Part shown: positions 23,097 to 40,353 of the stretch, piece by piece
Layout of the letters: each line of letters begins with the position of its first letter
How positions within the stretch are numbered: the first letter of the stretch is position 1
NCBI GenBank assembly: GCA_009377635.1
Contig: WHTR01000004.1
Location: forward strand, 1,682-65,681
Reading direction: 5' to 3'
Length of the DNA: 64,000 bases
From: Chloroflexota bacterium
GTDB taxonomy: Bacteria > Chloroflexota > UBA6077 > SHYK01
Program-made: the position numbers and the translations under genes
Notes under the pieces: generated by a model
The model's database searches: none
What the model was told of the DNA's origin: nothing
The model's input: the letters and a program-made list of their open reading frames with translations, nothing else

Positions 23097-23128
23097 CGTG
23101 TCAACCTTGTCGACGTCTGATGAGCCGC

Positions 23129-24286: not shown

Positions 24287-24290
24287 GTAG

Positions 24291-24926
24291 TCAGGCCGCC
24301 GCTGGCCGAACAGCCGCGGAGCTCACCAGGCGACGTTCGACTGCGTCCCAATCAATGTTACCGAAGAACGCCTCGATGTACTTGCTCCGCTCTGCGGGAC
24401 TGTAGTCCAGCATGAACGCATGCTCCCAAACATCCATGACCAGGATGGGCTTGAAGCCGGCCGGGTGGCCGTCTTGGTGCAGGGTCACCCAGTGGTTGCT
24501 CAATCGTCCGGTGATCGGATCCTGGTACAGGATTGCCCAGCCGACACCGCGAATCTCCCCCACGAGCTGGAAGTCCTCCTTCCACGCATCCCAGCCGCCG
24601 AAACTATCACTCACTGCCATGCCGATTTCGCCACGATCCATTGGCGCGCCGCGGCCGTGCGGTGTCAGGTTGCCGAAGTAATACTCGTGGAGGATCATGC
24701 CGTTGTACTCGAAGCCGGCGTTCCGTCTCAGCTCGGCGAACTCCCGCGTTCCCCCTTTGCCCTGGTCGAAGAGTTCCGCGATTCGCTCGTTGAGCTTGTT
24801 CGTGTTGCTCACATAGCCATCATAGAGCTTGAGATGGGCTTCGATTTGCTGGTCGGAGATGCCTCGCAGTCCCTTTAGCTGCGAAAAGTCGGTCGGCGTG
24901 TAGCGGGTCAGCATGTTCTGAGGCAT
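24291..24926 (-). CDS. sodA: Fe/Mn superoxide dismutase family protein
   Basis: C-terminal DVWEHAF signature, ILHEYYF, and N-terminal IEAHLKLYDGYV. GAGGAGGG RBS. Confidence 0.8.
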   Translation of the reverse strand: MPQNMLTRYTPTDFSQLKGLRGISDQQIEAHLKLYDGYVSNTNKLNERIAELFDQGKGGTREFAELRRNAGFEYNGMILHEYYFGNLTPHGRGAPMDRGEIGMAVSDSFGGWDAWKEDFQLVGEIRGVGWAILYQDPITGRLSNHWVTLHQDGHPAGFKPILVMDVWEHAFMLDYSPAERSKYIEAFFGNIDWDAVERRLVSSAAVRPAAA

Positions 24927-24996
24927 GTCGGGCCCTCCTCAACAAGAATCTCACTATCCTTATCGCGCGGTCCGGTTGCGGACGGCGTCGTCCCTC

Positions 24997-25013
24997 GTCA
25001 ACAGCCCGTCAAC
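24997..25013 (-). promoter_or_regulatory. GTTGAC-N5-GTTGAC direct repeat upstream of the SOD gene
   Basis: The plus strand reads GTCAACagcccGTCAAC. It is sense-oriented for the minus-strand SOD gene, 71-87 nt upstream of its ATG. Confidence 0.35.
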
Positions 25014-25215
25014 AACGACCGACTCTCATGGCGGCTTCCCTTGTGGATCGGTACCTCGTGGGCCTCTGGCCCGCTTCGGGCAGCGAAAGACGTTTACCGT
25101 CCGCAGGGAACGGACGCGTCTGACGACGTGCCGAGACGGGCACTTGCCGAGCTGTGACCGCCTCTCCATGCGCGCAACGGCGCCTGCTGCCCCCGGCCCG
25201 AGCGCGGCGGTGTCG

Positions 25216-25602
25216 CTACGATTCCTCACGGCGGCGGCTCGCCTCGCGCTTGCCCTGGCACTCGATACACAAGGTCGCGTGGGGACGCGCCCGCAGCCGC
25301 TCAGGCGGAATAGGGCGGCCGCACACCTCGCATGTGCCGTACGTGCCCGCCGCGAGTCGTTGCCGGGCGGCTTCCGCTTGCGCCGCCTCTTCGTCGATGA
25401 CCTCGCGGGTCGTCTCTCCCAGCTCACGCTGGTACGTCGCGTCGGCAAGGTCACCAGTATGCTGGTCGACCGTCGTCAATTCGCCGGTGATGTCCCGCTG
25501 GTCCCCGGAAAAGGCTGCGTTGTCGACCGCCTCGCGCAGTCGCCGGAGATTCTCTGCCTTCTTCTCGAGCTCCTCTTCGGGATTTCGTTCATGTTCTGTC
25601 AT
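25216..25602 (-). CDS. DksA/TraR-family C4 zinc-finger protein
   Basis: C-terminal CEVCGRPIPPERLRARPHATLCIECQ (CxxC-N17-CxxC) after a coiled-coil-like acidic region. Confidence 0.85.
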   Translation of the reverse strand: MTEHERNPEEELEKKAENLRRLREAVDNAAFSGDQRDITGELTTVDQHTGDLADATYQRELGETTREVIDEEAAQAEAARQRLAAGTYGTCEVCGRPIPPERLRARPHATLCIECQGKREASRRREES

Positions 25603-25660
25603 TGACCCCTCCTCGTCTCGTTAACGTACCAAGAGGCTGTCACGGTGCGCGTTATTCGAT

Positions 25661-25677
25661 GTAAACGACCGGTGAAC
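25661..25677 (-). promoter_or_regulatory. GTTCAC-N5-GTTTAC direct repeat upstream of the dksA-like gene
   Basis: The plus strand reads GTAAACgaccgGTGAAC. It is sense-oriented for the minus-strand gene, 59-75 nt upstream of its ATG. Confidence 0.4.
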
Positions 25678-25901
25678 GACCGGATGGACGCGCTCTTCCT
25701 GGCTCTCCTTGGCATTGACCTCAGCGTAACTCCCAGATACGAGTCCAGTAACAAAGCACGTGCACAATAGGTACAGTGAAAGCGACTACGAGGGCACCTC
25801 GACCGGTCGGTCGTGGTGACGGAGCACGATCTCGACACGTGGTTGATCTTAGACGAGAGATGCACGACAGTCCACGTGTGGCGCACAAGGAGGAGAGGCC
25901 A

Positions 25902-26288
25902 ATGCCAACCAGCAAGAACCCGGGGCGCGATCTACCATCGACGATCGAGCGGTCGGATCAGCACGCGCAAGAGATCTTTACCGAGACGCTCGAGAGCGCC
26001 GAGCAGACGTACGGCGAGGGGAGCCGGGCATACCGCGTGGCCTATGCGGCGCTGAAGCATCAGTACGAGAAGCGCGGCGACCGCTGGGTCACGAAGGGAT
26101 GGAAAGGACCGTCCGACCCGCAGGCACGCCGGGGCGCTACGACACGGAGATCCTCCATGGAGGACCCTCCAGCCCCCACAGCCAGAGGTAAGGTCGCGGG
26201 GAGCGAACAAGAGGCTCGCGAGAAAGCCGAGACCGCAGGCCGCGAGTACGCGATCGAGCGACGCAAACGCCTCAGGCGCGCGAGCTGA
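25902..26288 (+). CDS. ChaB-family protein
   Basis: AAGGAGGAGAGG RBS. LPSTIERSDQHAQEIFTETLESAEQTY...YRVAYAALKHQYEKRGDRWV fits the ChaB pattern. Confidence 0.75.
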   Translation: MPTSKNPGRDLPSTIERSDQHAQEIFTETLESAEQTYGEGSRAYRVAYAALKHQYEKRGDRWVTKGWKGPSDPQARRGATTRRSSMEDPPAPTARGKVAGSEQEAREKAETAGREYAIERRKRLRRAS

Positions 26289-26385
26289 CTTCAGTCCACG
26301 TTAGCTCTCACCAGCGGTCGGAGCTGGCCCCGGTGCAGGCTTCCGAGGTGGCTCGACATGCCGGGGGCTGAATCCGCTCTTTCCA

Positions 26386-27446
26386 CTACCTTCGAGCCGC
26401 GTGTCGGAGTTGCTCCCGCGCGGCGTCGACGACCTCCTCTACCGTGATCCCATCCAGGCAGCGGTGATCGATCGGGCACGTCGTATAGCCACACAGACTG
26501 CACGGCACACGGCGGTACAGCACGCGGTGACGCTCGCGATCCAGTGGCCCCCAACGGCGCAGGTTCCCGGGTCCGAAGAGCACGACGCTTCGCACGCCGA
26601 GCGCCTCCGCCACATGCGCCGGACCGCTGTCGTTGCACAGAAGCAGGTCGAGCTCACTGATCGTCGCGGCGAGCCCGCCGACAGACATCGCGCGTGTGGA
26701 TATGAGAGCCTCTCCGACCATCGCGTCACGCAGAACCCGGGTCAAGGGTTCCTCGCCAGGTCCCCACAGCAGGACGATCTCGGCCCCGAGGCTTGTCTGC
26801 AGCATATCGGCCACCGCGGCGTAGCGTTCCGGTGGCCAGCGACGCGCGGGCGCTTTGGCCCCGGGGTGGATTCCTACGAGCGGACGGCCTGATCGACAAA
26901 TGCAACATCCCAGCGCTGACACAGCGTCTGCCACGTCCTCCGGGGTCAACGGAAGTTCGAGGTGCGTCCCCTGCGCCCCGACACCGAGTTCCTCCAGAAG
27001 CCCGAGGAGCTTCACGCCTTCGTGCTCGTCGTCGCCGGGGTAGGGCACTGGGTGCGTGAGCGGGCATGCTCGCACATCCCGGGTGAAGCCAACTGACTGA
27101 CGCGCGCCGAGCTGAGCGACGAATCCGTTCATGTATCGGCCGTCGCCGTGGAGCTGGATCGCCAGGTCCAAATCACGGCACGGGCTTCGACGAGAAACGC
27201 CTCGGTTCTCTCAGGTTCGACCGGCGCTTCCGGGATGCCGGGGAAGCCTGGGAACTCCAGGAACCGGTCAACGTAGCCGAGGCGTCGAGCGAGGTCGGCA
27301 GCCCACGGGAGCCCGATGAGCGTCATCTCAGCGCCCGGGAACCGGCGCCGAAGAGCACGCAGCGCGGGCACGGCGATCAGCATGTCGCCGAGGTACAGCG
27401 CACGCACGACGACGATCCGGTCGATCCGCTTCGAGGGGCCGTTCAA
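26386..27446 (-). pseudogene. family-9 glycosyltransferase (heptosyltransferase-like), single frameshift
   Basis: The N-terminal part (IVVVRALYLGDMLIAVPALRALRRRFPGAEM...) and the C-terminal part (DLAIQLHGDGRY...HPGAKAPARRWP...CNDSGPAHVAEALG) lie in different frames. They join near 27160-27175 (gtgatttgg, T3 run). Confidence 0.65.
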
Positions 27447-28540
27447 GCGACACTCTCAGCCAACAGGCCGAGCGTCGCGTCCACGACCTGCTCGGGGGAT
27501 ACGAGCCGGAGGCAGTGGTGGTGTTCCTCGGGGCAGATACTCTGGTAGCAGTTCTTGCATGGCACGTCATGAGAAAGCACGCGGCTGGACACACGCCACG
27601 GAGCATGCTGGGGGTTGGTCAGCGCGTAGAGGTCCACGACAGGCGTACCGACAGCGGCAGCGATGTGAACCGGGCCCGTGTTGTTGCTGATGAGCACCGG
27701 CGCCAGCGCGAGCAGCGCGGCCAGCTCGCCAACGTCGAGCTGGCCGGCGAGGGAGAACGAGGGCGCACCCATCCGCTCCTGGATGCCTGCTACCTGCTGC
27801 CGCTCGTTTCCCCGCCCGGTAAGGACCACCTGGAATCCCGCGATAGAGAGCCGCCGAGCTGCCTTGGCGAAGCTCTCGGAGGGGTAGCGACGCGACGGTG
27901 CGGATGCACCGGGATGGATCACCACCCAGGGCCTGTCCAGGTCGATCCCTGCCTCCCGCGCTCGCCTGTGTGCGCCCTCGTGTGCACGATTCGGCACGCG
28001 CAGCGATAGCCGATTGTCGAAGGTCACTGCTCCCACGGTCGCAACCAGATCGAGCTGGCGCTGCACCTCGTGGCGCAGCACGCTGTGCGGCTCCGGGTCG
28101 GGCACCCAGTCCGTGAGGAGCTGATACGGATTCTCGTGGCAATGGGCGAGTCGAAGCGGAACATCCGCCAGGTAGCAGAGAAATGCGGCGGGCAGCGGGT
28201 TCTGACTGAATACCGTGAAGATCACCGCCGCATCGAAGCGCCCGCTCCGAAGTCGAAGGGCCACCCTGTGCTCCTCGCCGCTGTCAGCGCGAGGCGCCGT
28301 CGCCTTCATCCACGGCGCGTCGTAGACGATCGTGTCGTCGACCTCCGGGACGAGCGACGCCACCTCGGCACCCGCGGGCGACGTGAGGAGCGAGATCCGC
28401 CTGCCGGGAACGGATTCCCGAAGGGCACGAATCGCCGGCGTCGACATCAGCACATCGCCAATAGAGTCCAGGCGGACGCACAGGAGTCTTGTGGCCGCCT
28501 CCCAGTCAGCGTGCGAACCCCCAGTACCCTGGCCTGTCAT
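27443..28540 (-). CDS. family-9 glycosyltransferase (heptosyltransferase-like)
   Basis: LLCVRLDSIGDVLMSTPAIRAL, HPGASAPSRRYP and ISNNTGPVHIAAAVG. ATGA overlaps at both ends. Confidence 0.85.
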   Translation of the reverse strand: MTGQGTGGSHADWEAATRLLCVRLDSIGDVLMSTPAIRALRESVPGRRISLLTSPAGAEVASLVPEVDDTIVYDAPWMKATAPRADSGEEHRVALRLRSGRFDAAVIFTVFSQNPLPAAFLCYLADVPLRLAHCHENPYQLLTDWVPDPEPHSVLRHEVQRQLDLVATVGAVTFDNRLSLRVPNRAHEGAHRRAREAGIDLDRPWVVIHPGASAPSRRYPSESFAKAARRLSIAGFQVVLTGRGNERQQVAGIQERMGAPSFSLAGQLDVGELAALLALAPVLISNNTGPVHIAAAVGTPVVDLYALTNPQHAPWRVSSRVLSHDVPCKNCYQSICPEEHHHCLRLVSPEQVVDATLGLLAESVA

Positions 28541-30024
28541 GCAACCGCCCCGGTTAACAGGCCTCTATCAGCACTGATTCGCTGTAGGGCGTCTGTCGTC
28601 GAATAGCCCTCGACGAACGGCAGGATGCGTACCGTGCCCCCGAGCTGCTCGACCAGCTCAGCCTCGGGCAGGTCCTCGACCGTGTAGTCACCGCCCTTTG
28701 CGAATACGTCCGGTCGCACGGCCCGAATCAGCTCGACGGGGGTGTCCTCGTCGAAGACCGCGACGTGATCGGGAGCGCTTAGCGCGGCGAGGACCTCAAG
28801 GCGGTCCTCGAGTCGGTTGATAGGGCGTCCGGGTCCCTTAAGGCGCCGCACGCCATCGTCGGAGTTGACGCCGACGATCAGCACGTCACCGAGCGCGCGC
28901 GCGGCATTCAGATAGCTCACATGACCGCGATGCAAGATGTCGAAGCAGCCATTCGTGAGAATGATCCGGCAGCCGTCCCGTCGGTAGTCGGCGACCAGCC
29001 GACGCAGGTGGGAGACGTCTGGCACGAGCTTGCCGCCGGGGACGACGTGCCGCCGTAGCTCGCCCACAGAGCACGTGGCCGTTCCCGACTTGGCGACGAC
29101 GACGGCAGCGGCAGCCGACGCAATCTCGACCGCGACGATCGGGTCCGCTCGCGCTGCGAGCGCCAGGGCGAGTGCACTTGCGAACGTATCCCCAGCCCCA
29201 GCGGCCGGCGTGCGCGGGACAGACCTGGCGATGGCGCGGTACGGGGGACGGTCCCTGGATAGCAGAATCGCGCCGTCGCAGTCGAGGGTGACCACGACTA
29301 TGCTCGCGCCCGCAGCGTCCAGGATTCGATCAGCGGTCCTCGCTATCGCATCGGCCCGACCGGGGCCCTCAGGCAATGCCTGATCGCGAAGCAGCTGCAT
29401 CGCCTGCGCGAAGTTCGGCTTCGCGACAGTTGCGCCCACCATTCGGTAGGCTCCGAGCTGCTTGGCGTCGACGACGAGCACGCGCGGGCACGCGGTTTGC
29501 AGCTCGGCCAGCGCCTCGATACCTTCGGCACCTATGACTCCGTACCCATAGTCGGACACGATCACGGCGTCATGCTGAGCGAACAGCCGACCCAGTGCGA
29601 GGAGCAACCAGTCGCGGGTCTCCCGGCTCAACGCCTCGGTGCTTCCCTCGTCGAGCCGGACGAGCATCTGCGAGCCGGCCATGACCCGGCGCTTGGCGAT
29701 CGTCCGCCGCGCCGAGTCCGTCCGTATCTGCCCATCACACACACCGCGCTCGCCAAGCAGATGCCGCAGCTCTCTCCCCTCCGGGTCGTCGCCAACGACG
29801 GACAGGAGCGTAACTCGGGCGCCGAGCGCGGCAACATTGGCAGCCGTGTTCGCAGCTCCGCCGGGGGCCGAGGTACACCCGTCCAACGATACGATGGGCA
29901 CGGCGGCCTCCGGACTCAGGCGTCTCGCACGACCAGTGAGATAGCTGTCCAGCATCGACTCACCGATCACCAGGACGTTGAGTTCACGGAAGGAGCGCAG
30001 GAGGCGGGCCAGCTCGGCGCTCAT
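28537..30024 (-). CDS. hldE: bifunctional D-glycero-beta-D-manno-heptose-7-phosphate kinase / heptose-1-phosphate adenylyltransferase
   Basis: N-terminal PfkB kinase domain (GGAANTA..., AAGAGDTF) plus C-terminal cytidylyltransferase domain (LTNGCFDILHRGHVSYL...VGVNSD). Confidence 0.9.
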   Translation of the reverse strand: MSAELARLLRSFRELNVLVIGESMLDSYLTGRARRLSPEAAVPIVSLDGCTSAPGGAANTAANVAALGARVTLLSVVGDDPEGRELRHLLGERGVCDGQIRTDSARRTIAKRRVMAGSQMLVRLDEGSTEALSRETRDWLLLALGRLFAQHDAVIVSDYGYGVIGAEGIEALAELQTACPRVLVVDAKQLGAYRMVGATVAKPNFAQAMQLLRDQALPEGPGRADAIARTADRILDAAGASIVVVTLDCDGAILLSRDRPPYRAIARSVPRTPAAGAGDTFASALALALAARADPIVAVEIASAAAAVVVAKSGTATCSVGELRRHVVPGGKLVPDVSHLRRLVADYRRDGCRIILTNGCFDILHRGHVSYLNAARALGDVLIVGVNSDDGVRRLKGPGRPINRLEDRLEVLAALSAPDHVAVFDEDTPVELIRAVRPDVFAKGGDYTVEDLPEAELVEQLGGTVRILPFVEGYSTTDALQRISADRGLLTGAVA

Positions 30025-30746
30025 CGTCCGCTTCCTGTGATCTGCTCCGCGGCCTCGGCGAGGTCCACTGCCACGAAATCCGGCCAGGAACGCGGAGCGA
30101 CTCGATAGCCCACCTCGCCGCGTGCGTCTAGGGGTAAGGCCGAAAGGGGGCTTGAGGGATGCTCCGCATTCATCCTGAGCCGTTTGGTTCGCGCGAAGGT
30201 GAACTCCGCGAAAGCCCCGCTCCCCGCAGGTACGACTTCTTCCGCCTGCGGCCTCAGCACGACACGTTGCGGCCGCGCCTCCAGGAGGATCGATCTCACG
30301 CCCGCTCTGCGCCCAGCCTCCACGTCACTCGAGATGTCGCCGATGGTCCACGACCGCGCGAGGTCGAGACGCAACTCATCGGCCGCGCGCAGGATGAGTC
30401 CTGGCTCTGGCTTGCGGCAACCACACGCGCGCGCATATGCGCGGACGACTCCGTCCGGATGGTGCGGGCAGTAGTAGAAGCCGACCAGCGGGACACCGGC
30501 GGACGCAAGGAGCTCTCGGAGGCGCTCCTCGACGGCGACAAGCGCGGACTCTGGAAACAGGCCTCGAGCGACCCCGGACTGGTTTGTGACGATGACGAGC
30601 CGAAAGCCAGCGGCATGCAGCAGCCTCAACCCCTCGATCGCTCCCTTCGTGAGAACGACACGGCCCGGATCGACGTTGTAGGGCACGTCGTCGATCAGCG
30701 TGCCGTCCTTGTCGAGAAAAACGGCCGGTGCACTCGAGTGACTCAT
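30021..30746 (-). CDS. gmhB: D-glycero-D-manno-heptose 1,7-bisphosphate phosphatase (HAD-IIIA) with C-terminal extension
   Basis: FLDKDGTLI, VTNQSGVARG, YYCPHHP...CGCRKP and IGDISSDVEAG. About 60 extra C-terminal residues. Confidence 0.85.
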   Translation of the reverse strand: MSHSSAPAVFLDKDGTLIDDVPYNVDPGRVVLTKGAIEGLRLLHAAGFRLVIVTNQSGVARGLFPESALVAVEERLRELLASAGVPLVGFYYCPHHPDGVVRAYARACGCRKPEPGLILRAADELRLDLARSWTIGDISSDVEAGRRAGVRSILLEARPQRVVLRPQAEEVVPAGSGAFAEFTFARTKRLRMNAEHPSSPLSALPLDARGEVGYRVAPRSWPDFVAVDLAEAAEQITGSGR

Positions 30747-32674
30747 CCAGGTGTCCTCCGTACTTCCTCATCTGCCACCTTCCGTACGAACGGATGGGAG
30801 ACCGCCGGAGGTCTCGCCGCCGGCATTTCCGCCGACGACTGCGAGACAAGTTGCTCCTCCACGAGCTCACACAGGAGATGGATGACGACGATATGGACTT
30901 CCTGGATGTGCTGCGTGTCCGTCGACGGAACGATGATGGATACGTCGGCAAGTCGGCGCAGCTCGCCGCCGTTGCTCCCCACGATAGCCACGCGCCGCAG
31001 ACCCCGGCGCCGAGCAACCTTGAAGGCCTCGACGACGTTGCGCGATCGCCCACTCGTGCTGATGCCGATCAGGACGTCGCCGGGCTCACCGAGCGCTTCG
31101 ACCTGCTCTGCAAAGACTCGATCGTAGCCGATGTCGTTGGCGAGGGCTGTCAAGATTGCCGTGTCGGTCGTGAGGGCGAGGGCCGGGAGTGGCGCGCGGT
31201 CGAGCGACCTGAAGCGCCCGACGAACTCCGCCGCGAGATGCTGGGCGTCAGCGGCGCTGCCGCCGTTGCCACACGCCAGGACCTTGGCCCTGTGCTGGAC
31301 GGCGGACCCGACAATGTCCGCGGCCTCAAGCACGCCCGTGCGCAGATGGCGCTGGGATTCCTCCAGTGTTCGGATGGCGCCCTCGAAGTTCCTATCGAGG
31401 ATGGCCAATCGCTCCGCTTCGTTGGGTCGTCTTGGATGGCTGGCCACCATCACCTGCTCGTAGACGGCCGCGAGGGCGTTAGCGACACGCTGCCATGTGA
31501 AGAGGTCGTTCGCTCGCCGCACGGCGCGTCGCCCAAACACGCCGCGCAGACTCGGATGCCGAAAGAGCTGGGAGAGCCGCTCCCCGAGCGCCTCCGGATC
31601 GTCGGGAGGCACGAGATACCCGGTCTCCGAATCGCGTACCGTGAACTTGACGCCCCCAACGTCTGAGCCGACGACCGGCGTACCGCAGGCCATCGCTTCC
31701 ACGGGCGTTATGCCAAACGGCTCATACCAGGGTGTTGTGACGAAGACATCCGCCGCACTGTAATAGTACTTCAGGACGTCTCGTCCACGACGGCCGACGA
31801 AGGTGACGCGGTCGGCCACGCCCTCGGCTTCCGCCACCTGCTTCAGACGCCCGATCTCCGGCGTGATCTCCGGATCCGGCTCGTCGGACTCGCCGCCGAC
31901 GACCAGAAGCCGCGCAGGGGCGGGATCGCACTGCTGAAAGCGGGCGAAGCCACGGATCGCATTGTCGACGCCCTTGCGCCGCACCATGCGGCCGAGCTGC
32001 AGGACAAGGCGCTCCTCAGTCCCAAAGCCCAACATGACGCGCGCAAGCGGCTTGCTGAGCGGCCAGAACTCGGCTGGGTCGAATCCGCAGGGGATGATGC
32101 TGAGGCGCGACGGGTCCGCGTTGTAGTACCGAATCAGGTCGTCCTCGTCCTGCGGACACTCGGCGATGATATGGTCCGCCTCCCGCACGACGCGGTCCTC
32201 GACGTCGAAGCGCACATCCGGGAACTGGTCTGCCACTCCTTGAAAGGCGCGCCGCACCCGTCCAAGCGCGTGGAACGTAACCACGAATGGAACGGCGAGC
32301 TCCCGCTTGATGTCCGACGCCACCAGGGCAGACATCCAGAAGTTCGCGTGGACGAGGTCGTAGCCCCGCTGACGTCGGGTGCAGAGCCGCAGCACGCACT
32401 CGGTGAATCGCCCCATGTAGGGAAACAGCTCCTCCTTCCGCACGTACTCCGGCGGACCCGCGGGAATGTGAAAGATTCGAACGCCACGTATCCAGCGCGC
32501 GACCTCGGGAAGGAGCCTGCTGTCGCGGCGTGTGAACACATCCACCTCGTAACCCATCGCGGCGAGGTGCCGCGCCACCTGCCCGACGTACACGTTCTGG
32601 CCGCCGCTGTCCGCGCCTCCCAGGATCGCGAGCGGCGACGCGTGCTCGCTGATGAGCGCAATTCTCCGTGTCAT
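30743..32674 (-). CDS. fusion protein: GT4 (group-1) glycosyltransferase + sedoheptulose-7-phosphate isomerase (GmhA, SIS domain)
   Basis: The N-terminal ~425 aa are GT-B/GT4 (GGADSGGQNVYV..., EPFGITPVEAMACGTPVV). The C-terminal ~190 aa are GmhA-like (VLACGNGGSAADAQHLAAEF...TDTAILTALANDIGY...LIGISTSGRSRNV...HIQEVH). Confidence 0.85.
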   Translation of the reverse strand: MTRRIALISEHASPLAILGGADSGGQNVYVGQVARHLAAMGYEVDVFTRRDSRLLPEVARWIRGVRIFHIPAGPPEYVRKEELFPYMGRFTECVLRLCTRRQRGYDLVHANFWMSALVASDIKRELAVPFVVTFHALGRVRRAFQGVADQFPDVRFDVEDRVVREADHIIAECPQDEDDLIRYYNADPSRLSIIPCGFDPAEFWPLSKPLARVMLGFGTEERLVLQLGRMVRRKGVDNAIRGFARFQQCDPAPARLLVVGGESDEPDPEITPEIGRLKQVAEAEGVADRVTFVGRRGRDVLKYYYSAADVFVTTPWYEPFGITPVEAMACGTPVVGSDVGGVKFTVRDSETGYLVPPDDPEALGERLSQLFRHPSLRGVFGRRAVRRANDLFTWQRVANALAAVYEQVMVASHPRRPNEAERLAILDRNFEGAIRTLEESQRHLRTGVLEAADIVGSAVQHRAKVLACGNGGSAADAQHLAAEFVGRFRSLDRAPLPALALTTDTAILTALANDIGYDRVFAEQVEALGEPGDVLIGISTSGRSRNVVEAFKVARRRGLRRVAIVGSNGGELRRLADVSIIVPSTDTQHIQEVHIVVIHLLCELVEEQLVSQSSAEMPAARPPAVSHPFVRKVADEEVRRTPG

Positions 32675-32695
32675 CCCATTCCTCCAGTCAAGGCC

Positions 32696-33661
32696 TCAGA
32701 CGGCTAGGAATCGGGCGGTGGACGCGCGCCCGGCCACGAATCGGAAGACTGCGTCCCAGTCCCGCACAAACCGCGCGATGTCGAAGCGCTCCGTGGCTGC
32801 CCGTTGCGCACCCTGGCCCAGCCGTCGCGCCTCGTACGGATCGCGGATCAACGAACGCATGTGCTCGACGAGCCAGTTCAGGTCTGTGCCCACGTACCCG
32901 GACACCCCGTTCTCGATGACCGTTGCCACCTCAGTGGTGCCCAGCGCGACGACCGGCATGCCCAGCATCATCGCCTCGCACAGTGCGAGACCCAAACTCG
33001 TGTAGCGAATTGGGTGGAAGAAGAATCGATAGCGGGCCTCGAACGCGGGCAGCTCGGGGTACGGCACCTCGCGGACCCCGTCGATCTCCTCGGTCGCCAT
33101 CCCGACCAGGTCCAGAGGAACCTGCCGGCGCGCGCGGTCGAAGATGTCCGCCCCCAGGCGCCGCCCGCGACGAGCAAGGTGGTTGACAACGACGATCCCC
33201 CGGTCGAGCTCGCCGGTGTAATGCACGCCCTCCGGCCGCGGCACGCCATGCTCGATGACCCGAGTTGGTGTGCATCCGCTGTCCCACATCAGCTCGTTGA
33301 AGGGCGTTACGTGGACCAGCAGCGTGTTGGGATCGTCGATTAGGTGACGCGTATCGGTCGGATGCTCCTGCGGGGGGTCGTGCTCCAGGTAGATGGAGGG
33401 GAGACGCATCTGATCGTCAGAGAGAATCTCGTACCGGTCCCGCAGGTAATTTCGGGGAATTTGCAACAGGACGCAGTCGAGCCGCAGGTTTCGAACATCC
33501 TCGGCCGGCACCTCGTGCACGTTGGGGGGCCAGAGGAACGGCCCGACGCGGCCGCCGTACGGATGAGCCCGTCCCGTCTTGAAGGGCAGGTAGAAGTCGT
33601 GACTCGTGTTCGCGAGTGCCAGCAGATAGCTGCCGTGGACATGCCAGGTAAGGATATGCAC
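32696..33661 (-). CDS. group-1 (GT4-like) glycosyltransferase
   Basis: C-terminal GT-B motif FFFHPIRYTSLGLALCEAMMLGMPVVALGTTEVATVIENGVSGYV. Confidence 0.75.
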   Translation of the reverse strand: MHILTWHVHGSYLLALANTSHDFYLPFKTGRAHPYGGRVGPFLWPPNVHEVPAEDVRNLRLDCVLLQIPRNYLRDRYEILSDDQMRLPSIYLEHDPPQEHPTDTRHLIDDPNTLLVHVTPFNELMWDSGCTPTRVIEHGVPRPEGVHYTGELDRGIVVVNHLARRGRRLGADIFDRARRQVPLDLVGMATEEIDGVREVPYPELPAFEARYRFFFHPIRYTSLGLALCEAMMLGMPVVALGTTEVATVIENGVSGYVGTDLNWLVEHMRSLIRDPYEARRLGQGAQRAATERFDIARFVRDWDAVFRFVAGRASTARFLAV

Positions 33662-33720
33662 TCATTCACCCCCGCGGGTTGGGTGCGCTGCGAGTGGCGC
33701 CTTGATTCGTGGACAACACA

Positions 33721-34740
33721 TTAGAACGTGCCCGCGTATACCGAGCACGAACGGCAGACGTCCGGCGGGTGATTGGAGGCAAGCCGTTCCCGAAAGGATT
33801 GGTACGCGTCCCCTTCCCAGACCGAGCGGAGACCCTGCTTGTCGACGTTCCCAAAGTTAATCCGGTCGGGCGTGGCAACCATGCAGCAGGGCATCGCATA
33901 CCCGTCATAGCTCACGTACGCCCCCGTCCACGGCCAGCTGCATCGGTCGGGGCCCGGCGTGCCAGGCGGATGGAGTCGAGGGCGCGTCCTCGGCAGCCGC
34001 AGATCGATCCCGGCCTCCGAGGCTATCGCGCGCGCCTCCTCAAAGTAGTGCGCCACTCGGTCGGGAGTCTCGTCGAGGAGCGTCTGCGCTTGCACGAACG
34101 CGCGCATCGGTGCGTAGTGCGCGGGCAGACTCGACTCGCCGAAGTCGTGGCAGAGGTGTTGGACGAACATGGCCTCGAAGGACCATTGCCGCGCGAATCG
34201 AACCAGGCCGGGAAGCTCGTGGAGGTTTTGCCGCATGACCACCGCGACGAGACGCAGGTGCGGCAGTTTGCTGGCCAACCCTTGCCTGGCCTCGAGAAGT
34301 GTCTCTAGGTTGCGCACGAGGCGGTCAAACCGTCCGCGGACGCGAATACGCTCGTACGTTTCTGACGTAGCGCTATCGATCGAGACATGAAGCCATTGCA
34401 GGCCGCTTCGGACGCAATGCTCGGCTCTTCGCCCGTTCAGCAATGTTAGATTCGAGTTCGTGCTGACGGCGATTCCGCGCGCCGTCGCGTAGGCGACCAT
34501 GTCAAAGAAGCGAGGGTGCATCATCGGCTCGCCGAGCCCCTGAAGGTGCAGCTCGTTGACGCCGTTCATCTCGTTGACGAGTCGCGCATACATGTCAAAA
34601 GGCATGAACGCGGGCGGACCGAACGGCGGGCCGTCGCGCCGGAACTGGATCGGACACATCTGGCAACGCAGGTTGCACTGGCCGACCGGCTCGATCTGGA
34701 GGAATCCGGGAAGAGGCGGCCGGGACGTGGTCCCCGTCAT
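33721..34740 (-). CDS. radical SAM enzyme with C-terminal SPASM domain
   Basis: CNLRCQMC (CxxxCxxC) near the N-terminus. The C-terminal SPASM-like Cys cluster is CSWPW...GYAMPCCMV...GN...CRSCSVY. The ATG at 34740 overlaps the upstream TGA (ATGA). The longer track ORF start is antisense noise. Confidence 0.85.
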   Translation of the reverse strand: MTGTTSRPPLPGFLQIEPVGQCNLRCQMCPIQFRRDGPPFGPPAFMPFDMYARLVNEMNGVNELHLQGLGEPMMHPRFFDMVAYATARGIAVSTNSNLTLLNGRRAEHCVRSGLQWLHVSIDSATSETYERIRVRGRFDRLVRNLETLLEARQGLASKLPHLRLVAVVMRQNLHELPGLVRFARQWSFEAMFVQHLCHDFGESSLPAHYAPMRAFVQAQTLLDETPDRVAHYFEEARAIASEAGIDLRLPRTRPRLHPPGTPGPDRCSWPWTGAYVSYDGYAMPCCMVATPDRINFGNVDKQGLRSVWEGDAYQSFRERLASNHPPDVCRSCSVYAGTF

Positions 34741-35774
34741 AGGAAGAACACCCGGTACTTGATGGCGCCCCACACCCGCCAGAAGACCGCTAGCAACGGA
34801 ATGAGGGCGGACGTCGCGACAACCTCGGTGACGTGCGTCGGCGCAGCCGACGATCCGGAGAGTCGCTCCGCGCACAAACGGCCGGTCAGGATAGCCCATG
34901 CGAGCACGCCTCCGAGCATGAGGCCGCGGCGCCGGCCCGCTGCCCCTGCGAGCGCAACGAGCATGGCAGCAACGATGCGGTAGTAGCGCCACGGGGGCCG
35001 CTGAATCCGCTCGCGGTACAGTCTCGGGTGCTTCTTGTAGAGAAGGGCGTTGTAGAGATTCTTCCGTTGCTGCCTGAGACTCACCCCCCACGTGCTCAGG
35101 CGGACGGGGTGGATGACGACAGCGTCGTCCGACCGCTCGAGGCGGGCCCCGGATTTGAGAATCCTGAAGAACACGTCGCTGTCCTCGCGCCAGGCCAGTT
35201 GGAACCGCTCGTCGAATCCGCCGACGGCACTCAGCGCATCCCGCCGGTAGAAGCAATTCGCCGTGACGAACTCGCCCCGCTCCAACCTTGCCACATCGCG
35301 CTCGTAGTCCGTCGGTCTCTCGGGGATCGGCACGAGCACACGGCCTCCTACGCCCACGACCCCGTCGCGGAACGCATCCACACCGGCTCGCAGCCAGCCA
35401 CGGTGCGGGATACAGTCGTCATCGGTGAACGCGATGATGGGGCAGCTCGCGACGCGCCACCCCCGATTGCGCGCCGCGGCCGGCCCATGGCTGCCCTGCA
35501 CCGCAACATAGCGGAACCGGGGCCCCCCTCGATGCTGAGCGGGATCCGTACGATCGGGTTCCGGAACGACCATGTCCGCGAACTCGGGCTTCAATTCACA
35601 TGCTCGCGCCATCGCCTCCACCTGCTGGTGGGTCTCCAAGCTCCTCGCGTCGTCGACAACAATGATCTCGTACTCGCTCGCGTCCAGATCTTGGTCCATG
35701 AGCGCCTCGAGGCAGCGCCCGAGATGCTCTGGTCGACGGCACGTGGGGACGACGACGGACACACGCGGTGTCAT
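34737..35774 (-). CDS. family-2 glycosyltransferase with C-terminal membrane segments
   Basis: VSVVVPTCRRPEHL...IIVVDDA...AFTDDDC, followed by hydrophobic C-terminal helices. Confidence 0.85.
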   Translation of the reverse strand: MTPRVSVVVPTCRRPEHLGRCLEALMDQDLDASEYEIIVVDDARSLETHQQVEAMARACELKPEFADMVVPEPDRTDPAQHRGGPRFRYVAVQGSHGPAAARNRGWRVASCPIIAFTDDDCIPHRGWLRAGVDAFRDGVVGVGGRVLVPIPERPTDYERDVARLERGEFVTANCFYRRDALSAVGGFDERFQLAWREDSDVFFRILKSGARLERSDDAVVIHPVRLSTWGVSLRQQRKNLYNALLYKKHPRLYRERIQRPPWRYYRIVAAMLVALAGAAGRRRGLMLGGVLAWAILTGRLCAERLSGSSAAPTHVTEVVATSALIPLLAVFWRVWGAIKYRVFFL

Positions 35775-37591
35775 GCGTCCACCGCTGGCTTCGCGACGAG
35801 AAACGGCCCGATCGCGAGCGCATCCAGCGGCGATGACCAGAACGACCGGAGCGCGTCTTCCGGCGAGCAGACGATAGGCTCGCTGCGCGTGTTGAAGGAC
35901 GTGTTGATCAGCACCGGAACGCCAGTTCGAGCCCGGAACGCCTTCACCAGGTCGTAGAAGAGTGGATGCTGGGACCGGTTGATGGTCTGAATGCGCGCTG
36001 TCCCATCGACGTGACGGACGGCCGGAATGCGGCCCGCCACGTCGGGTCGCACGGGGTAGACGAACAACATGAACGGTGACGTTTCAGCACGCTCGAACCA
36101 GCGTGAGGCCTCTTGCTCCAGCACGACTGGCGCGACCGGCCGAAAGTCCTCGCGGTCCTTGATGTCGTTGAGGCGGTCCTGCATAGACGCATCAATCGGC
36201 GACGCGAGGATGGATCGCGCGCCGAGCGCACGCGGCCCGAATTCCATGCGCCCCTGGAACCATCCAACAACGTTGCCTACGGCCAGCAGCGCGGCAACCT
36301 CCTGGGCGACGTCGTCCATCCGTCGATAGCTGGACTTGGACCAACGCAGGACCCGCTCGATGTCCTGATCCGAGTAGGCTGGACCGAGAAATGCATGATC
36401 CATGCGGAAGTGGCGGCTTTCGCTGCCACGCTCCCGGGCATCGACCCATAGGGCTGCACCCAGTGATGTCCCTGCATCACCGGCTGCGGGCTGGACCCAG
36501 AGGCGGGAGAATGGGCCGCGGTCGCGCAGGCAGGAGTTCATGACGCAGTTGAGCGCCACCCCTCCAGCCAGACACAGACTGTCGCTCCGCGTCGCCCCAT
36601 GCAGCCATCGGGCGAGCTCGAGCACGGTCTCTTCCAGCGCAACCTGGAGCGAGGCGGCTACGTCGTGATGACGGGCTTCAATTGGGGCATGTCGCTGACG
36701 CGGGGGTCCGAACCGGGCCTCCAGCTCTGGCGGCTGGACCGTGTAGCGGCCCTCACCCTGGACGCAAATAATCTCCTGGAACTCCCTCAGGAATCGTTGT
36801 TTCCCGAACGACGTAAGCGCCATAACCTTGTACTCATCGGACGAGCGTTGGAAGCCGAGGTACTCGGTCACCTGTTCGTAGAGAATGCCCAGCGAGTGGG
36901 GAACGTCCACCTGACCTAGTCGATCGAGTCGGTTCCCGTCCCCAATGCTGTAGCTGGTCGTCGCCCGCTCTCCCCGTCCGTCGACGGTGAGCACCGCTGC
37001 CTGCTCAAACGGGGAGGCGTGATAGGCGCTCACCGCGTGCGTCAGGTGGTGGTCCACGAAGTGCCAGCGATACGGACCGTCCGCGTGGACTTCCGGGAAC
37101 CGTTCCTTGAGATGGTGCGGCGCCCCACCCGCCAACTGCCGTGGGGCGTTCAGAACGTAGCACAGGAAGAGGGGCTCCCACGGCGACTCCCATGCCGATT
37201 TGGTCGGATGCGCGCTCGGTGCGACCGGCAGCGAGATCGCCGCTCCCACCTGATGCGATCCCAGTAGCTGATAGGGGTCGAAGGAGTAGGCAACATGATC
37301 CACGTCGGCGAGTCGGATTCCAGCGGCCCGGAGGCAATAGTCGATGGCCTGGAACGGCAGCTCGTACGTGGAAAATGGACCGGGACGCTTCCCGTGCTTC
37401 ACATGGTTGAAGCGTTCTTCCTCGGCCGCCGCGAGAACCTCGCCATCCCAGACGAGACTGGCCGACGGATCGTGAAAGACGGCATTGATGCCAAGTGTGT
37501 ACACGGTTTGCTGCCTTTCTTGGGACGATCCGCCAAACGGCGATCTCGCTCGCCTCTCGTGCTCCATCAACGAGGGATCGGTAGTTGTCAT
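35771..37591 (-). CDS. carbamoyltransferase (NodU/CmcH/TobZ family)
   Basis: YTLGINAVFHDPSASLVWDGEVLAAAEEERFNHVKH at the N-terminus and INTSFNTRSEPIV at the C-terminus. The ATG of the maximal ORF lies inside the repeat terminus GGATGAC. A GTG at 37504 (MYTLGI...) with an upstream GAAAGG is a likelier start. Confidence 0.85.
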   Translation of the reverse strand: MTTTDPSLMEHERRARSPFGGSSQERQQTVYTLGINAVFHDPSASLVWDGEVLAAAEEERFNHVKHGKRPGPFSTYELPFQAIDYCLRAAGIRLADVDHVAYSFDPYQLLGSHQVGAAISLPVAPSAHPTKSAWESPWEPLFLCYVLNAPRQLAGGAPHHLKERFPEVHADGPYRWHFVDHHLTHAVSAYHASPFEQAAVLTVDGRGERATTSYSIGDGNRLDRLGQVDVPHSLGILYEQVTEYLGFQRSSDEYKVMALTSFGKQRFLREFQEIICVQGEGRYTVQPPELEARFGPPRQRHAPIEARHHDVAASLQVALEETVLELARWLHGATRSDSLCLAGGVALNCVMNSCLRDRGPFSRLWVQPAAGDAGTSLGAALWVDARERGSESRHFRMDHAFLGPAYSDQDIERVLRWSKSSYRRMDDVAQEVAALLAVGNVVGWFQGRMEFGPRALGARSILASPIDASMQDRLNDIKDREDFRPVAPVVLEQEASRWFERAETSPFMLFVYPVRPDVAGRIPAVRHVDGTARIQTINRSQHPLFYDLVKAFRARTGVPVLINTSFNTRSEPIVCSPEDALRSFWSSPLDALAIGPFLVAKPAVDA

Positions 37592-37651
37592 CCTGAATCC
37601 GTATCCCTTGCCTGAGGGGATTCTTCTCCGCCTCAGGCGGATCAGAATGAC
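37587..37651. repeat. REP/MITE-like element with 10-bp terminal inverted repeats (GTCATCCTGA ... TCAGAATGAC)
   Basis: GTCATCCTGAatccgtatcccttgcctgaGGGGATTCTTCTCCGCCTCAGGCGGATCAGAATGAC. Same family as 15342, 15778/15838 and 45465. Confidence 0.6.
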
Positions 37652-37785
37652 GTTGATTGGGTACGATCACTTCTTCTCCGAGTATCGAAGCGGCGAGGAT
37701 CAATGCGAGTTGCGGCCGGTTAACTTCCCGTAAACGATTTCCAACGAGTTAGTGACAACCGTGCATGATTAAGAGCCCTTACGAC

Positions 37786-37814
37786 GCCGGAGAAGGATCC
37801 GCCGGTAGGATGAC
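37786..37814. repeat. degenerate REP-like unit ending in AGGATGAC
   Basis: GCCGGAGAAGGATCCGCCGGTAGGATGAC shares the GAGA...AGGATGAC ends of the right arm at 15838-15864. Confidence 0.4.
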
Positions 37815-38102
37815 ACCAACGCCCTCTAAAGCGACAGCGTTCAACACCCGGACCATTGCCTTCACCCATTGGCTTCGGATGTGCCGTCATAGACATAATA
37901 GGTAAAACCACAATGCACCTGGACGGGCTCCATCGATGAGCAAACGGCCAAGTGTGAGGTGTCTTGGGGGATCGGGACAGTGTCAACCCGACATGAGCAT
38001 TCGGGCATGATCTACGACTAGACTCAGCAAGACAGCGCGTGGTATGCACATCACATCGCTTGTATGGACGGTCTGCCAACTGTCATGAAAGGAGCGCACT
38101 TC

Positions 38103-38828
38103 ATGTTAGAGCTAGATGGGCGAGTGGCGGTCGTGACCGGTGGCGGCCAAGGGCTTGGCGAGGCGATCTGCAACGCGCTCGGCGACGCGAAAGCCATTGT
38201 TGTCGCCACGGACATTCGCCGGGAGCTGGCGCAGGGCGTCGCCGCCCGAGTCGAGGCGCATGGCGGTCGGGCGCTCGGCATGTACCTGGACGTAAGGGAC
38301 GAGGACGGAGCCGCGGCAACCTTACGACACGTTGTCGACGCCTACGGTCGTATCGACGTTCTGGTGAACAATGCCGGCGTCGATCGAACGGTCTCGATCG
38401 AGGAGCTGCTAATTCAGGAGTGGGACCGGATCATCGCGACGAACCTCCGGGGGCCGTTTGTGCTGTCGAAGCTGTGCCTGCCGCTCATGGGGCAACAGGG
38501 GAGCGGCCACATCGTGAACATCGTGTCCACCGCCGCAAAGCGGGCGTGGCCGAACGCTGCCGCCTACCACGCCAGCAAGTGGGGATTGCTCGGCTTCAGT
38601 CATGCCCTCCACGTCGAGGCCCGGACCCACAACGTAAAGGTCACTGCAGTCGTGAGCGGAGGGATGCGTACGCCGTTCCTGCTCGAGCGCTTCCCCGATA
38701 TCGATCCTAGTACGCTGCAGGACCCGCGGACGGTAGCGGAGACGGTCCGCTGGGTTCTGACGATCCCCGACGAGAGCGTGGTCCCCGAGGTGATGGTCAT
38801 CCCACTCGGAGAGACCTCGTGGCCGTGA
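38103..38828 (+). CDS. short-chain dehydrogenase/reductase (SDR)
   Basis: GAAAGGAG RBS. TGGGQGLG, NNAG and YHASKWG (YxxxK). Confidence 0.85.
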   Translation: MLELDGRVAVVTGGGQGLGEAICNALGDAKAIVVATDIRRELAQGVAARVEAHGGRALGMYLDVRDEDGAAATLRHVVDAYGRIDVLVNNAGVDRTVSIEELLIQEWDRIIATNLRGPFVLSKLCLPLMGQQGSGHIVNIVSTAAKRAWPNAAAYHASKWGLLGFSHALHVEARTHNVKVTAVVSGGMRTPFLLERFPDIDPSTLQDPRTVAETVRWVLTIPDESVVPEVMVIPLGETSWP

Positions 38829-39582: not shown

Positions 39583-39599
39583 GTGAACCGTGAGTAAAC
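39583..39599 (-). promoter_or_regulatory. GTTTAC-N5-GTTCAC direct repeat in the hesB-like/hpf divergent region
   Basis: The plus strand reads GTGAACcgtgaGTAAAC. It is 93-109 nt upstream of the hpf ATG and 165-181 nt upstream of the hesB-like ATG, sense-oriented for the latter. Confidence 0.35.
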
Positions 39600-39691
39600 A
39601 CCCCTTTAATCCCCACGGTTGTACCCAGCATTTACGGCGCGCCATGCGGGGGTCAACGTCAACACCAGATAGTGAATTGAAGGGAGGTTCG

Positions 39692-40123: not shown

Positions 40124-40152
40124 TTCCGCTGCAGACCAAATGGGGGGAGGAC

Positions 40153-40353
40153 ATGAGCAAGAACGTGAAGCGCGCGAGAACGCGGATCCAGGGGCACCTC
40201 GCGTTGCCAGTCAATCCAAGCGTTTCTGGCACAGCCAAGCAAGCGGCGCGCGTCGAGAAAGGGGGACGCACTGGCGGTGGGCGACGATCCGAGGGCAGCG
40301 GCCACCCACCCGCCGGTGGGCGGGGTGGCAAAGCGAGCCGCGGTCACCGATAG
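40153..40353 (+). CDS. small basic Gly/Arg-rich protein, unknown function
   Basis: Strong GGGGGGAGG RBS 4 nt before ATG 40153. 66 aa, with KGGRTGGGRR...GGRGGK loosely like KGG-type stress repeats. It sits directly after hpf. Confidence 0.45.
   Translation: MSKNVKRARTRIQGHLALPVNPSVSGTAKQAARVEKGGRTGGGRRSEGSGHPPAGGRGGKASRGHR

Follow-up and report, generated by a model that had tools for sequence, protein, structure and literature searches.

Organization of the operon

We analysed a window of 64,000 nucleotides (64 kb) from contig WHTR01000004.1 of a Chloroflexota bacterium, in which the minus strand between 26386 and 37591 carries a glycan operon of nine co-directional reading frames. A sequence-only reading of this DNA had assigned the nine genes, and Pfam and NCBIfam reproduced all of its domain calls at the same coordinates. 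The first gene of the operon (35771-37591) encodes an O-carbamoyltransferase with the Pfam domains Carbam_trans_N and Carbam_trans_C. It is followed by a membrane glycosyltransferase of family 2 (GT2; 34737-35774; Pfam GT2 families) and by a radical S-adenosylmethionine (SAM) enzyme with a twitch-like C-terminal domain (33721-34740; Pfam radical SAM and SPASM matches). Then come two family 4 glycosyltransferases (GT4): a short GT4-like protein of 321 amino acids with a GTG start (32696-33661; Pfam Glycos_transf_1 and Glyco_trans_1_4) and a 643-amino-acid fusion of a long GT4 to a SIS/GmhA domain (GT4::GmhA; 30743-32674). A HAD-IIIA/GmhB phosphatase (30021-30746) and a bifunctional HldE, with PfkB and cytidylyltransferase-like parts (28537-30024), continue the series; these two and the fusion were recognized by both Pfam and NCBIfam. 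The operon ends with two family 9 glycosyltransferases (GT9), the WaaF-like heptosyltransferase GT9a (27443-28540; Pfam Glyco_transf_9, 117 bits) and the heptosyltransferase GT9b (26386-27446), whose tblastn matches fall in two frames, 27129-27446 and 26386-27171.

When the junctions were read directly, five proved to be ATGA overlaps (35771-35774, 34737-34740, 30743-30746, 30021-30024 and 28537-28540), the membrane GT2 sharing one with each of its neighbours. A sixth junction, 27443-27446, had been counted with them but reads TTGA, the TTG start of GT9b lying over the TGA stop of GT9a. The other gaps within the operon are 59 nt, between the radical-SAM and short GT4 genes, and 21 nt, between the short GT4 and GT4::GmhA genes. 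Judging from the overlapping start and stop codons, the operon genes would be translationally coupled. A promoter and terminator scan of 25600-38300 gave nothing exceeding shuffled sequences, and Rfam, run on the window, found no riboswitch or leader near the operon. Since the same gene set and order are found in dozens of unrelated genomes, chance would not produce this operon.

While the nine genes stand as described, the system to which they belong is larger. It also includes a classical short-chain dehydrogenase/reductase (SDR) that is divergent from the operon on the plus strand (38064-38828; Pfam adh_short, 182 bits), and a plus-strand pair formed by a soluble GT2 (GT2x; 19648-20514; Pfam GT2) and a further heptosyltransferase (GT9c; 20511-21623; Pfam Glyco_transf_9, 86.8 bits). 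In total, Pfam finds three GT9 genes in the window: GT9a, GT9b and GT9c.

Conservation of the cluster across genomes

A profile search of the GTDB species representatives found relatives of the radical-SAM enzyme, at 63-72% identity, in 311 species belonging to at least six phyla, and the best 80 loci of these 311 species were retrieved. Within Chloroflexota, the carriers are Ktedonobacteria (including the cultured Thermosporothrix hazakensis ATCC BAA-1881, NZ_QKUF01000008.1, and Ktedonosporobacter rubrisoli SCAWS-G2, with the cluster at about 4.774-4.795 Mb of NZ_CP035758.1), Chloroflexia, Thermomicrobiales and Anaerolineae. Cyanobacteriota are represented by Floridaenema, Waterburya, Coleofasciculus and Crinalium, and the Planctomycetota carriers include Tundrisphaera sp. 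TA3, which has a complete genome (NZ_CP195100.1). Gemmatimonadota also carry the cluster, as do a few metagenome-assembled genomes (MAGs) labelled Proteobacteria, Actinomycetota, Bacillota, Thermodesulfobacteriota and Methylomirabilales.

A survey of gene neighbourhoods had been proposed together with the first description of the operon; in ours, the radical-SAM gene nearly always has carbamoyltransferase, GT2 and GT9 genes next to it, often with heptose genes as well. With GT4s and GT4L for the short and long GT4, CmT for the carbamoyltransferase, rSAM for the radical-SAM enzyme and MT for a methyltransferase, the recurring order found by tblastn is [GT9]-GT4s-GT4L(::GmhA)-SDR-GmhB-HldE-GT9a-(GT2x)-CmT-GT2-(DUF1622)-rSAM-(MT)-GT2y-GT9b/c. 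A GT2 gene lies immediately upstream of the radical-SAM gene in 46 of the 63 loci with at least 3.5 kb of upstream sequence available, a GT9 gene is nearby in 31 of the 36 loci with at least 9 kb on each side, and a heptose-pathway gene is present in 24 of the 47 loci with at least 9 kb upstream. Another Chloroflexota MAG (locus L063) has exactly the gene order of the window, with GT9b intact. The mean identity of the radical-SAM enzyme is 0.70 within and 0.68 between phyla, and that of the carbamoyltransferase is 0.73 and 0.70; such near-equal values suggest horizontal spread, very strong constraint, or both.

All-versus-all clustering of 5,684 open reading frames (ORFs) of at least 90 amino acids from 82 loci revealed no conserved exporter, flippase, priming transferase, epimerase or aminotransferase, only generic families in at most 9 loci each. 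Likewise, no ABC exporter, polymerase or ligase was conserved with the cluster in these loci. As a separate observation, a DUF1622 membrane protein is inserted between the GT2 and radical-SAM genes in L001 (9493-9996), L009, L011, L028 and L048; the insert occurs in cyanobacterial loci and in one locus labelled Actinomycetota, and is absent from the window.

The radical-SAM enzyme and its partner glycosyltransferase

The radical-SAM protein is identical to MPZ13120.1, and the adjacent GT2 to MPZ13121.1, of a Chloroflexota MAG. Its core begins at the N-terminus, where the CX3CX2C motif is formed by C22, C26 and C29, and there is no space for a peptide-recognition domain. At the other end, the Pfam SPASM match covers residues 267-332 (58.5 bits), and the protein terminates 7 residues past a lone CX2C. 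In the wider family, which includes relatives down to about 29% identity, only C267, C285, C329 and C332 are invariant among the C-terminal cysteines, and in a profile-to-PDB alignment they coincide with the four C-terminal cysteines of BtrN. The seven-cysteine SPASM motif (CX9-15GX4C...CX2CX5CX3C...C), which corresponds to two auxiliary clusters, is not found. Thus, of the radical-SAM/SPASM assignment made earlier, the radical-SAM part and the Pfam SPASM match stand, but the C-terminal domain looks like a shortened SPASM of the twitch kind found in BtrN, its invariant cysteines numbering four.

BtrN acts on a carbohydrate-like substrate, in which it oxidises a secondary alcohol, and the twitch domain has been defined in the same source (PMC9012708). 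The cluster enzyme resembles BtrN in its CX3CX2C motif, the four aligned C-terminal cysteines, the small single-domain form and the lack of a peptide-binding domain. Its AlphaFold model has a predicted local distance difference test score (pLDDT) of 78, low in the C-terminal tail, and Foldseek matched it to BlsE (top), SkfB, DesII, SuiB, CteB, PqqE, MoaA and viperin about equally well, at a template-modelling (TM) score of about 0.6; of these structural neighbours, BlsE, DesII, MoaA and viperin act on sugars or nucleotides. The similarity to BtrN, BlsE and DesII is marginal (profile E about 1e-7 to 1e-8, 14-21% identity). Unlike these enzymes, ours is encoded in a glycosyltransferase cluster rather than in a cluster for an aminoglycoside or nucleoside antibiotic, and a membrane GT2 is its coupled or fused partner. 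With this protein, every NCBIfam model stays below its cut-off. The family looks like a distinct small-substrate twitch enzyme, and oxidation or epimerisation at a sugar carbon would be the most economical guess for its reaction.

C197 (in HLCHDF) was considered as the hydrogen donor of an epimerase and was rejected: it is invariant in close orthologs but not in the wider family or in the fusion of GT2 to the radical-SAM enzyme described below. Among distant relatives there are giant proteins of 800-1900 amino acids (P0296, P0321, P0334, P0371 and others) with two to five tandem radical-SAM/SPASM modules, and one of these proteins has a B12-binding domain.

The membrane GT2 was modelled by AlphaFold with a pLDDT of 89.5 as a GT-A domain followed by three long C-terminal helices, the architecture of a minimal enzyme of the cellulose-synthase-like kind. 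Foldseek placed the transmembrane mannosyltransferase PcManGT (6yv7) first, and then TarP, RmlT and the Chlorella virus hyaluronan synthase. PcManGT has the same length (345 amino acids) and the same architecture, GT-A plus C-terminal helices; the match itself is weak (TM about 0.54, 20% identity), and QxxRW is replaced by QQR(K) in the cluster GT2, whose invariant motifs are DDA, DDD, ED and QQR(K). The membrane character assigned to this protein at the outset is thus backed by the modelled helices and the PcManGT match, with simple hydropathy showing a single clearly hydrophobic segment, and we treat the GT2 as a predicted membrane enzyme.

An exhaustive search of representatives found the two proteins joined in one polypeptide. 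P0260 (L085, 1023-2999) is a single chain of 658 amino acids, its N-terminal half being 43% identical to the GT2 of the window and its C-terminal half 44% identical to the radical-SAM enzyme, and a carbamoyltransferase gene (52% identity) precedes it on a 79%-GC metagenomic contig (Logan SRR22840553). This is a lone contig of 3.4 kb, and caution is needed; both halves share one frame, and the divergence of P0260 rules out a trivial mis-assembly within the same lineage. The fusion makes the GT2, and not a peptide, the functional partner of the radical-SAM enzyme.

This last point bears on a resemblance to mycofactocin, in which the radical-SAM protein MftC likewise stands beside the GT2 MftF; in many orthologous clusters a methyltransferase follows. 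If our cluster were of this kind, the radical-SAM enzyme would modify a ribosomal peptide, as in peptides that are made on the ribosome and modified after translation (RiPPs), and the MftF-like GT2 and the other glycosyltransferases would glycosylate it. MftF (TIGR03965) is indeed the best NCBIfam match of the GT2, EpsD being another model that stays below its cut-off; the radical-SAM enzyme weakly matches MftC, PqqE and sactipeptide maturases, and its Foldseek matches include SkfB, SuiB, CteB and PqqE. The scores are far under the cut-offs, however (137.8 bits against 280 for MftF, and 65.9 against 265 for MftC, TIGR03962). The radical-SAM core, starting from residue 22, leaves no room for peptide recognition, only one auxiliary-cluster set of cysteines is present, and the operon gaps of 59 and 21 nt are too short for a peptide gene. 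In the 80 loci, the radical-SAM gene has no conserved small ORF within 4.5 kb, and the cluster has no MftA, MftB, MftD, MftE or second auxiliary-cluster motif. We regard a peptide product as very improbable.

The carbamoyltransferase and the heptose module

The O-carbamoyltransferase has the two-domain architecture of NodU, CmcH and TobZ (Carbam_trans_N and Carbam_trans_C at 193 and 238 bits). The NCBIfam NodU model scores 188 bits, far under its cut-off, and the nearest PDB structures are NovN, GdmN and TobZ (E 1e-83 to 1e-92). Orthologs of 60-72% identity are found in 59 of 83 loci. The carbamoyltransferase noted earlier is thus present, of NodU/TobZ/NovN type by Pfam and PDB, and its putative target is O-7 of a heptose.

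For the heptose itself, a complete GmhA/HldE/GmhB set had been reported. All three enzyme families are present and HldE is bifunctional; their activities are predicted from family membership. GmhA would be the sedoheptulose-7-phosphate isomerase, GmhB the heptose-1,7-bisphosphate 7-phosphatase, and HldE both heptose-7-phosphate kinase and heptose-1-phosphate adenylyltransferase, and together they would supply ADP-heptose. The fusion protein consists of a retaining GT4 similar to sucrose-phosphate synthase (SPS) and MshA (residues 1-415; 292 bits with the NCBIfam MshA model) and of a GmhA domain (residues about 425-615), whose PDB matches include GmhA crystal structures (E 1e-50) and whose score with the gmhA model is 201.8 bits (cut-off 209.45). 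GmhB scores 140.8 bits against a cut-off of 178 with NF006506 and 133.8 bits, also below cut-off, with TIGR00213, while a HAD-IIIA model exceeds its cut-off at 118.8 bits; the protein has a C-terminal extension of ~75 amino acids. HldE is matched across its full length by NF008454 (379.8 bits), and its rfaE domain II, at 195.8 bits, exceeds the cut-off of 181.5.

The same three families and the bifunctional HldE architecture occur in the ADP-heptose pathways of Gram-negative lipopolysaccharide (LPS) and of septacidin and hygromycin B in actinomycetes. Septacidin biosynthesis is a reported precedent for the use of ADP-heptose outside LPS (PMC9978623). Compared with these known pathways, the cluster differs in that GmhA is fused to an SPS/MshA-like GT4 and in that a classical SDR is embedded in the module. 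Compared with septacidin and hygromycin B in particular, it has three GT9 enzymes instead of a single natural-product glycosyltransferase, and neither an aminotransferase nor an extra natural-product tailoring gene is conserved in the 80 loci.

The SDR deserves attention because of an earlier conclusion on the configuration of the heptose. It is 60-66% identical to the cluster SDRs of L009, L016, L019-L021, L040, L048, L058, L060, L062, L067 and L077, and in the clusters of other genomes its ortholog is located between GmhA and GmhB, whereas in the window it lies divergently upstream. Its matches in PDB and NCBIfam are generic. No protein with PF01370, the HldD-type extended SDR domain, is encoded in the window, and the adh_short SDR is the only cluster-linked oxidoreductase. 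The absence of HldD from the window had been taken to mean that the donor is D,D-heptose. The absence holds, but the conclusion is unsafe because a conserved classical SDR belongs to the heptose module, and this SDR may alter the heptose.

The GT4::GmhA protein is an in-frame fusion in all 9 of the loci with GmhA in the cluster. The best PDB matches of the long GT4 are the sucrose-phosphate synthase Tll1590 (6kih, 267 bits) and MshA (3c48, 206 bits), which glycosylate sugar or cyclitol phosphates, and a WaaG structure is not among its PDB matches at E <= 1e-15. Tll1590, described in PMC7264703, is the nearest solved relative.

These relatives raise the possibility that the product is soluble: a heptose natural product, a compatible solute, or a free intracellular oligosaccharide. 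In such a route, GT4::GmhA would glycosylate a sugar phosphate, possibly heptose-7-phosphate or sedoheptulose-7-phosphate, as the primer; the HAD phosphatase would dephosphorylate it, the GT9 enzymes would extend it, and the carbamoyltransferase, SDR and radical-SAM enzyme would tailor it. Consistent with this, both nearest relatives of the long GT4 use phosphorylated small-molecule acceptors, and the GT4 is invariably fused to a sugar-phosphate isomerase. The carbamoyltransferase is closest to NovN, GdmN and TobZ; the radical-SAM enzyme has neighbours (BtrN, BlsE and DesII) that act in tailoring the sugars of antibiotics; the cluster lacks linked genes for export or polymerisation; and stress and dormancy genes flank the operon. 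On the other hand, the core GT2 is predicted to be membrane-embedded, and characterised GT9 enzymes (WaaC, WaaF) act on membrane-anchored acceptors. The wide conserved spread over soil phyla would also be unusual for an antibiotic cluster, and no resistance, regulator or transporter genes are conserved. Weighing these points, we hold a soluble product to be possible but not probable.

In the short GT4, only the C-terminal Rossmann half is recognizable (Pfam, residues 198-286). The protein is 50-68% identical in 24 loci, and its gene is always directly upstream of that for the long GT4. A pair of this kind, with one degenerate N-terminal half, recalls two-component GT-B systems, in which case the short GT4 would be a non-catalytic partner of the long one and the glycan might be built on an S-layer or other envelope glycoprotein. 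An S-layer glycan was among the products first suggested for this operon, and heptosylated proteins are known from the autotransporter heptosyltransferases. We think a protein-linked glycan quite unlikely, because the genes conserved with the cluster include no oligosaccharyltransferase, no priming enzyme for a lipid carrier, no flippase and no candidate target protein. More generally, of the cell-surface glycan envisaged in the sequence-only reading, the surface location and the S-layer and capsule variants are hypothetical, no export, polymerase, ligase or priming gene being linked, and the non-LPS, heptose- and carbamoyl-containing reading holds.

The heptosyltransferases and the question of LPS

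GT9a passes the WaaF equivalog model (TIGR02195, 144.8 bits against a cut-off of 134.6) and is 58-67% identical in 33 loci by tblastn. This model is permissive, and besides it NCBIfam, run on every protein of the cluster, gave no equivalog; in a host that lacks LPS, the WaaF label would be an over-annotation.

GT9b had been noted as frameshifted, and both the two-frame tblastn matches and an alignment with the intact L063 ortholog (48-51% identity) bear this out. A single G is missing near 27172, where GTGAT is found and GTGGAT is expected, and the alignment puts the break at ...AV|DLDLAIQLHG. The frameshift may reflect either a real pseudogene or a consensus or assembly error of the MAG.

The further GT9 and GT2 genes reported at 19648-21623 are present and related to cluster genes elsewhere. 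The ATG of GT2x at 19648 is preceded by GAAAGGAG, and a GTGA overlap at 20511-20514 couples GT2x to GT9c. GT2x is 47% identical to GT2y of L001, which in other genomes is the GT2 coming after the radical-SAM gene or after its methyltransferase, and the GT9c orthologs (49-56% identity) come after GT2y or GT9b in L004, L040, L043, L056 and L059. A search of PDB with the GT2y sequence gave no match. By these relationships, we take the pair to be a displaced tail of the same system.

Because GT9 enzymes are present, the operon could be an ordinary inner-core locus of LPS or lipo-oligosaccharide, in which lipid A bearing Kdo (3-deoxy-D-manno-octulosonic acid) is heptosylated and then carbamoylated as in Pseudomonas. 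There, WapO/PA5005 places a 7-O-carbamoyl group on heptose II of the inner core (PMC8005017), and the core locus (waaF-waaC-waaG ... wapO/PA5005) shares the GT9 enzymes, a GT4 and a NodU-family carbamoyltransferase with our cluster. A carbamoylated heptose with GT9 and GT4 genes is therefore already known and not new per se. The score of GT9a above the WaaF cut-off agrees with an inner-core locus, and many carriers are diderm (Planctomycetota, Gemmatimonadota and Cyanobacteriota).

The surrounding genes tell a different story. Pfam scans of ~50 ORFs across the window found no lpx gene, no Kdo gene (kdsA/B) and no waaA, and none for hldD, waaL, msbA, a flippase, a ligase or a polymerase; no lpx, kds or waaA gene is conserved beside the cluster in the 80 loci. 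Thus the heptosyltransferases of an inner core are present, whereas the Kdo-lipid A machinery and HldD are missing from the window and are not conserved beside the cluster in the 80 loci. According to a review (PMC8871954), Chloroflexi have no LPS, and their outer-membrane genes follow the pattern seen in monoderm Terrabacteria; the cluster is carried by Ktedonobacteria and Thermomicrobiales. That phyla with and without LPS carry the cluster at ~68% identity implies that they have the acceptor in common, and the long GT4 is nearer to SPS and MshA than to WaaG. In contrast to the Pseudomonas core, the cluster has no WaaP-type heptose kinases and no HldD, and it brings its own GmhA, HldE and GmhB and adds genes for the membrane GT2, the twitch-like radical-SAM enzyme and the SDR, in a host phylum reported to lack LPS. 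An inner-core locus is accordingly quite unlikely, and the earlier statements that Kdo and lipid A genes are not nearby and that this is not an LPS inner-core locus both survive the wider comparison.

Surroundings of the operon

By Pfam, the operon is flanked at 22458-26288, 39590-42602 and 62776-63306 by stress and dormancy genes: AhpC/TSA, an M50 protease with CBS domains, Fe/Mn superoxide dismutase, ChaB, a ribosome hibernation factor, two BON-domain proteins and ferritin/Dps; two-component regulators are also found in the window. Since these flanks are not conserved in other genomes, we draw no functional link to the operon.

Several other features of the window may be recorded. An isolated 136-nt match to 23S rRNA (RF02541, 75-80 bits, model positions 2666-2801) lies at 42677-42812 on the minus strand, between a BON-domain gene and an alpha/beta-hydrolase gene. 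It covers the helices around the sarcin-ricin loop, with the loop altered from AGUACGAGAGGACC to CGUGCGAGCGGACC; a pseudo-fragment of rRNA, a mimic and a chimera made during assembly are its possible origins. A myo-inositol-1-phosphate synthase gene (1-1577, minus strand; 322 bits) extends beyond the window on the left, 29 kb away from the operon; it is of possible interest in that the long GT4 resembles MshA, an inositol-phosphate glycosyltransferase. An encapsulin (Linocin_M18) match at 18037-18195 covers only profile positions 3-55 of 253, and at 44217-44954 only the C-terminal half of a GT1/MGT-type glycosyltransferase is present. Together with the GT9b frameshift, these possibly truncated genes hint at gene decay or at assembly errors in the MAG. 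An aromatic-degradation cluster at 3456-13522 contains three Rieske ring-hydroxylating oxygenases, a BphC-type extradiol dioxygenase, a LigB-type dioxygenase and an alpha/beta hydrolase. At 48391-50913 (minus strand), an 840-amino-acid protein with AMP-binding, phosphopantetheine-carrier and acyltransferase parts resembles Aas-like acyl-ACP (acyl carrier protein) synthetase/lysophospholipid acyltransferases.

Discussion

Based on the gene content, the overlapping start and stop codons, the fusions and the cross-phylum conservation of the cluster, all of which are observed directly, we propose that a conserved and self-sufficient pathway, of which this locus is one copy, makes a non-LPS, heptose-rich, O-carbamoylated glycoconjugate. 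We lean toward this proposal with slightly better than even confidence. Beyond these observations, we infer in which order the reactions run, what kind of acceptor is used, where the product ends up and what the radical-SAM enzyme does, as follows. By family membership, the GmhA domain would convert sedoheptulose-7-phosphate to the 7-phosphate of D-glycero-D-manno-heptose, and the SDR may further modify the heptose product. Up to three GT9, two GT4-type and two GT2 enzymes would then build a short heptose-rich hetero-oligosaccharide on the cytoplasmic side. Assembly would most likely take place on or beside a membrane-bound acceptor: we favour this because the GT2 is predicted to be membrane-embedded and because GT9 enzymes usually use membrane-anchored acceptors. 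The result would be a glycolipid resembling lipo-oligosaccharide on an anchor other than lipid A. By analogy with the 7-O-carbamoyl heptose of Pseudomonas, the NodU/TobZ-type enzyme would O-carbamoylate the glycan, and the BtrN-like radical-SAM enzyme, which is genetically coupled to the membrane GT2 and in one lineage fused with it, would oxidise or epimerise a sugar carbon by taking a hydrogen from it.

Several findings weigh against this proposal. No acceptor-defining enzyme, flippase or exporter is linked to the cluster, so that a membrane anchor and a surface-exposed product are hypothetical. The long GT4 is nearest to enzymes of soluble sugar phosphates, SPS and MshA, and the nearest solved relatives of the carbamoyltransferase act on antibiotics; both fit a soluble product equally well. 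GmhA, GmhB and full-length HldE are all under their NCBIfam equivalog cut-offs, and the fold matches of the radical-SAM enzyme fail to separate sugar-acting from peptide-acting enzymes. Finally, one of the GT9 genes, GT9b, is frameshifted in this assembly, and the SAM methyltransferase of many orthologous clusters is not in the window.

A bolder form of the proposal can be drawn, which we put forward tentatively and consider rather doubtful as a whole. The cluster would encode an LPS-independent heptoglycan system that is mobile between phyla and provides Chloroflexota without LPS, and other bacteria, with a carbamoylated heptose glycolipid or oligosaccharide resembling lipo-oligosaccharide, on which a complex of the twitch radical-SAM enzyme and the GT2 performs undescribed radical chemistry. 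It might, for example, be a radical-based epimerisation standing in for HldD or an oxidation that is finished by the SDR, and the SPS-like GT4::GmhA would prime synthesis on heptose phosphate or sedoheptulose phosphate.

The arrangement had been thought not to be described before, and this is in line with our searches: a full-text literature search found no paper on a cluster of heptose, carbamoyltransferase and radical-SAM genes, and NCBIfam has no family for its signature proteins. The parts all come from known enzyme families; it is the combination, the independence from LPS, the breadth and the fusions that set the cluster apart.

ADP-heptose and GT9 heptosyltransferases count as hallmarks of the LPS core in Gram-negative bacteria, and here a complete cluster that would consume ADP-heptose is conserved in Chloroflexota, which are reported to lack LPS. 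Annotation pipelines risk calling the GT9 enzymes of this cluster “lipopolysaccharide heptosyltransferase II” in organisms that lack LPS. Of additional note, ADP-heptose is described as a potent agonist of innate immunity. The new and very highly conserved family of twitch-like radical-SAM enzymes, with its probable carbohydrate substrate, and the recurrent, testable GT4::GmhA fusion could both reveal new sugar chemistry. Taken as a whole, the cluster points to an unrecognized class of heptose glycoconjugates that is common in soil bacteria.

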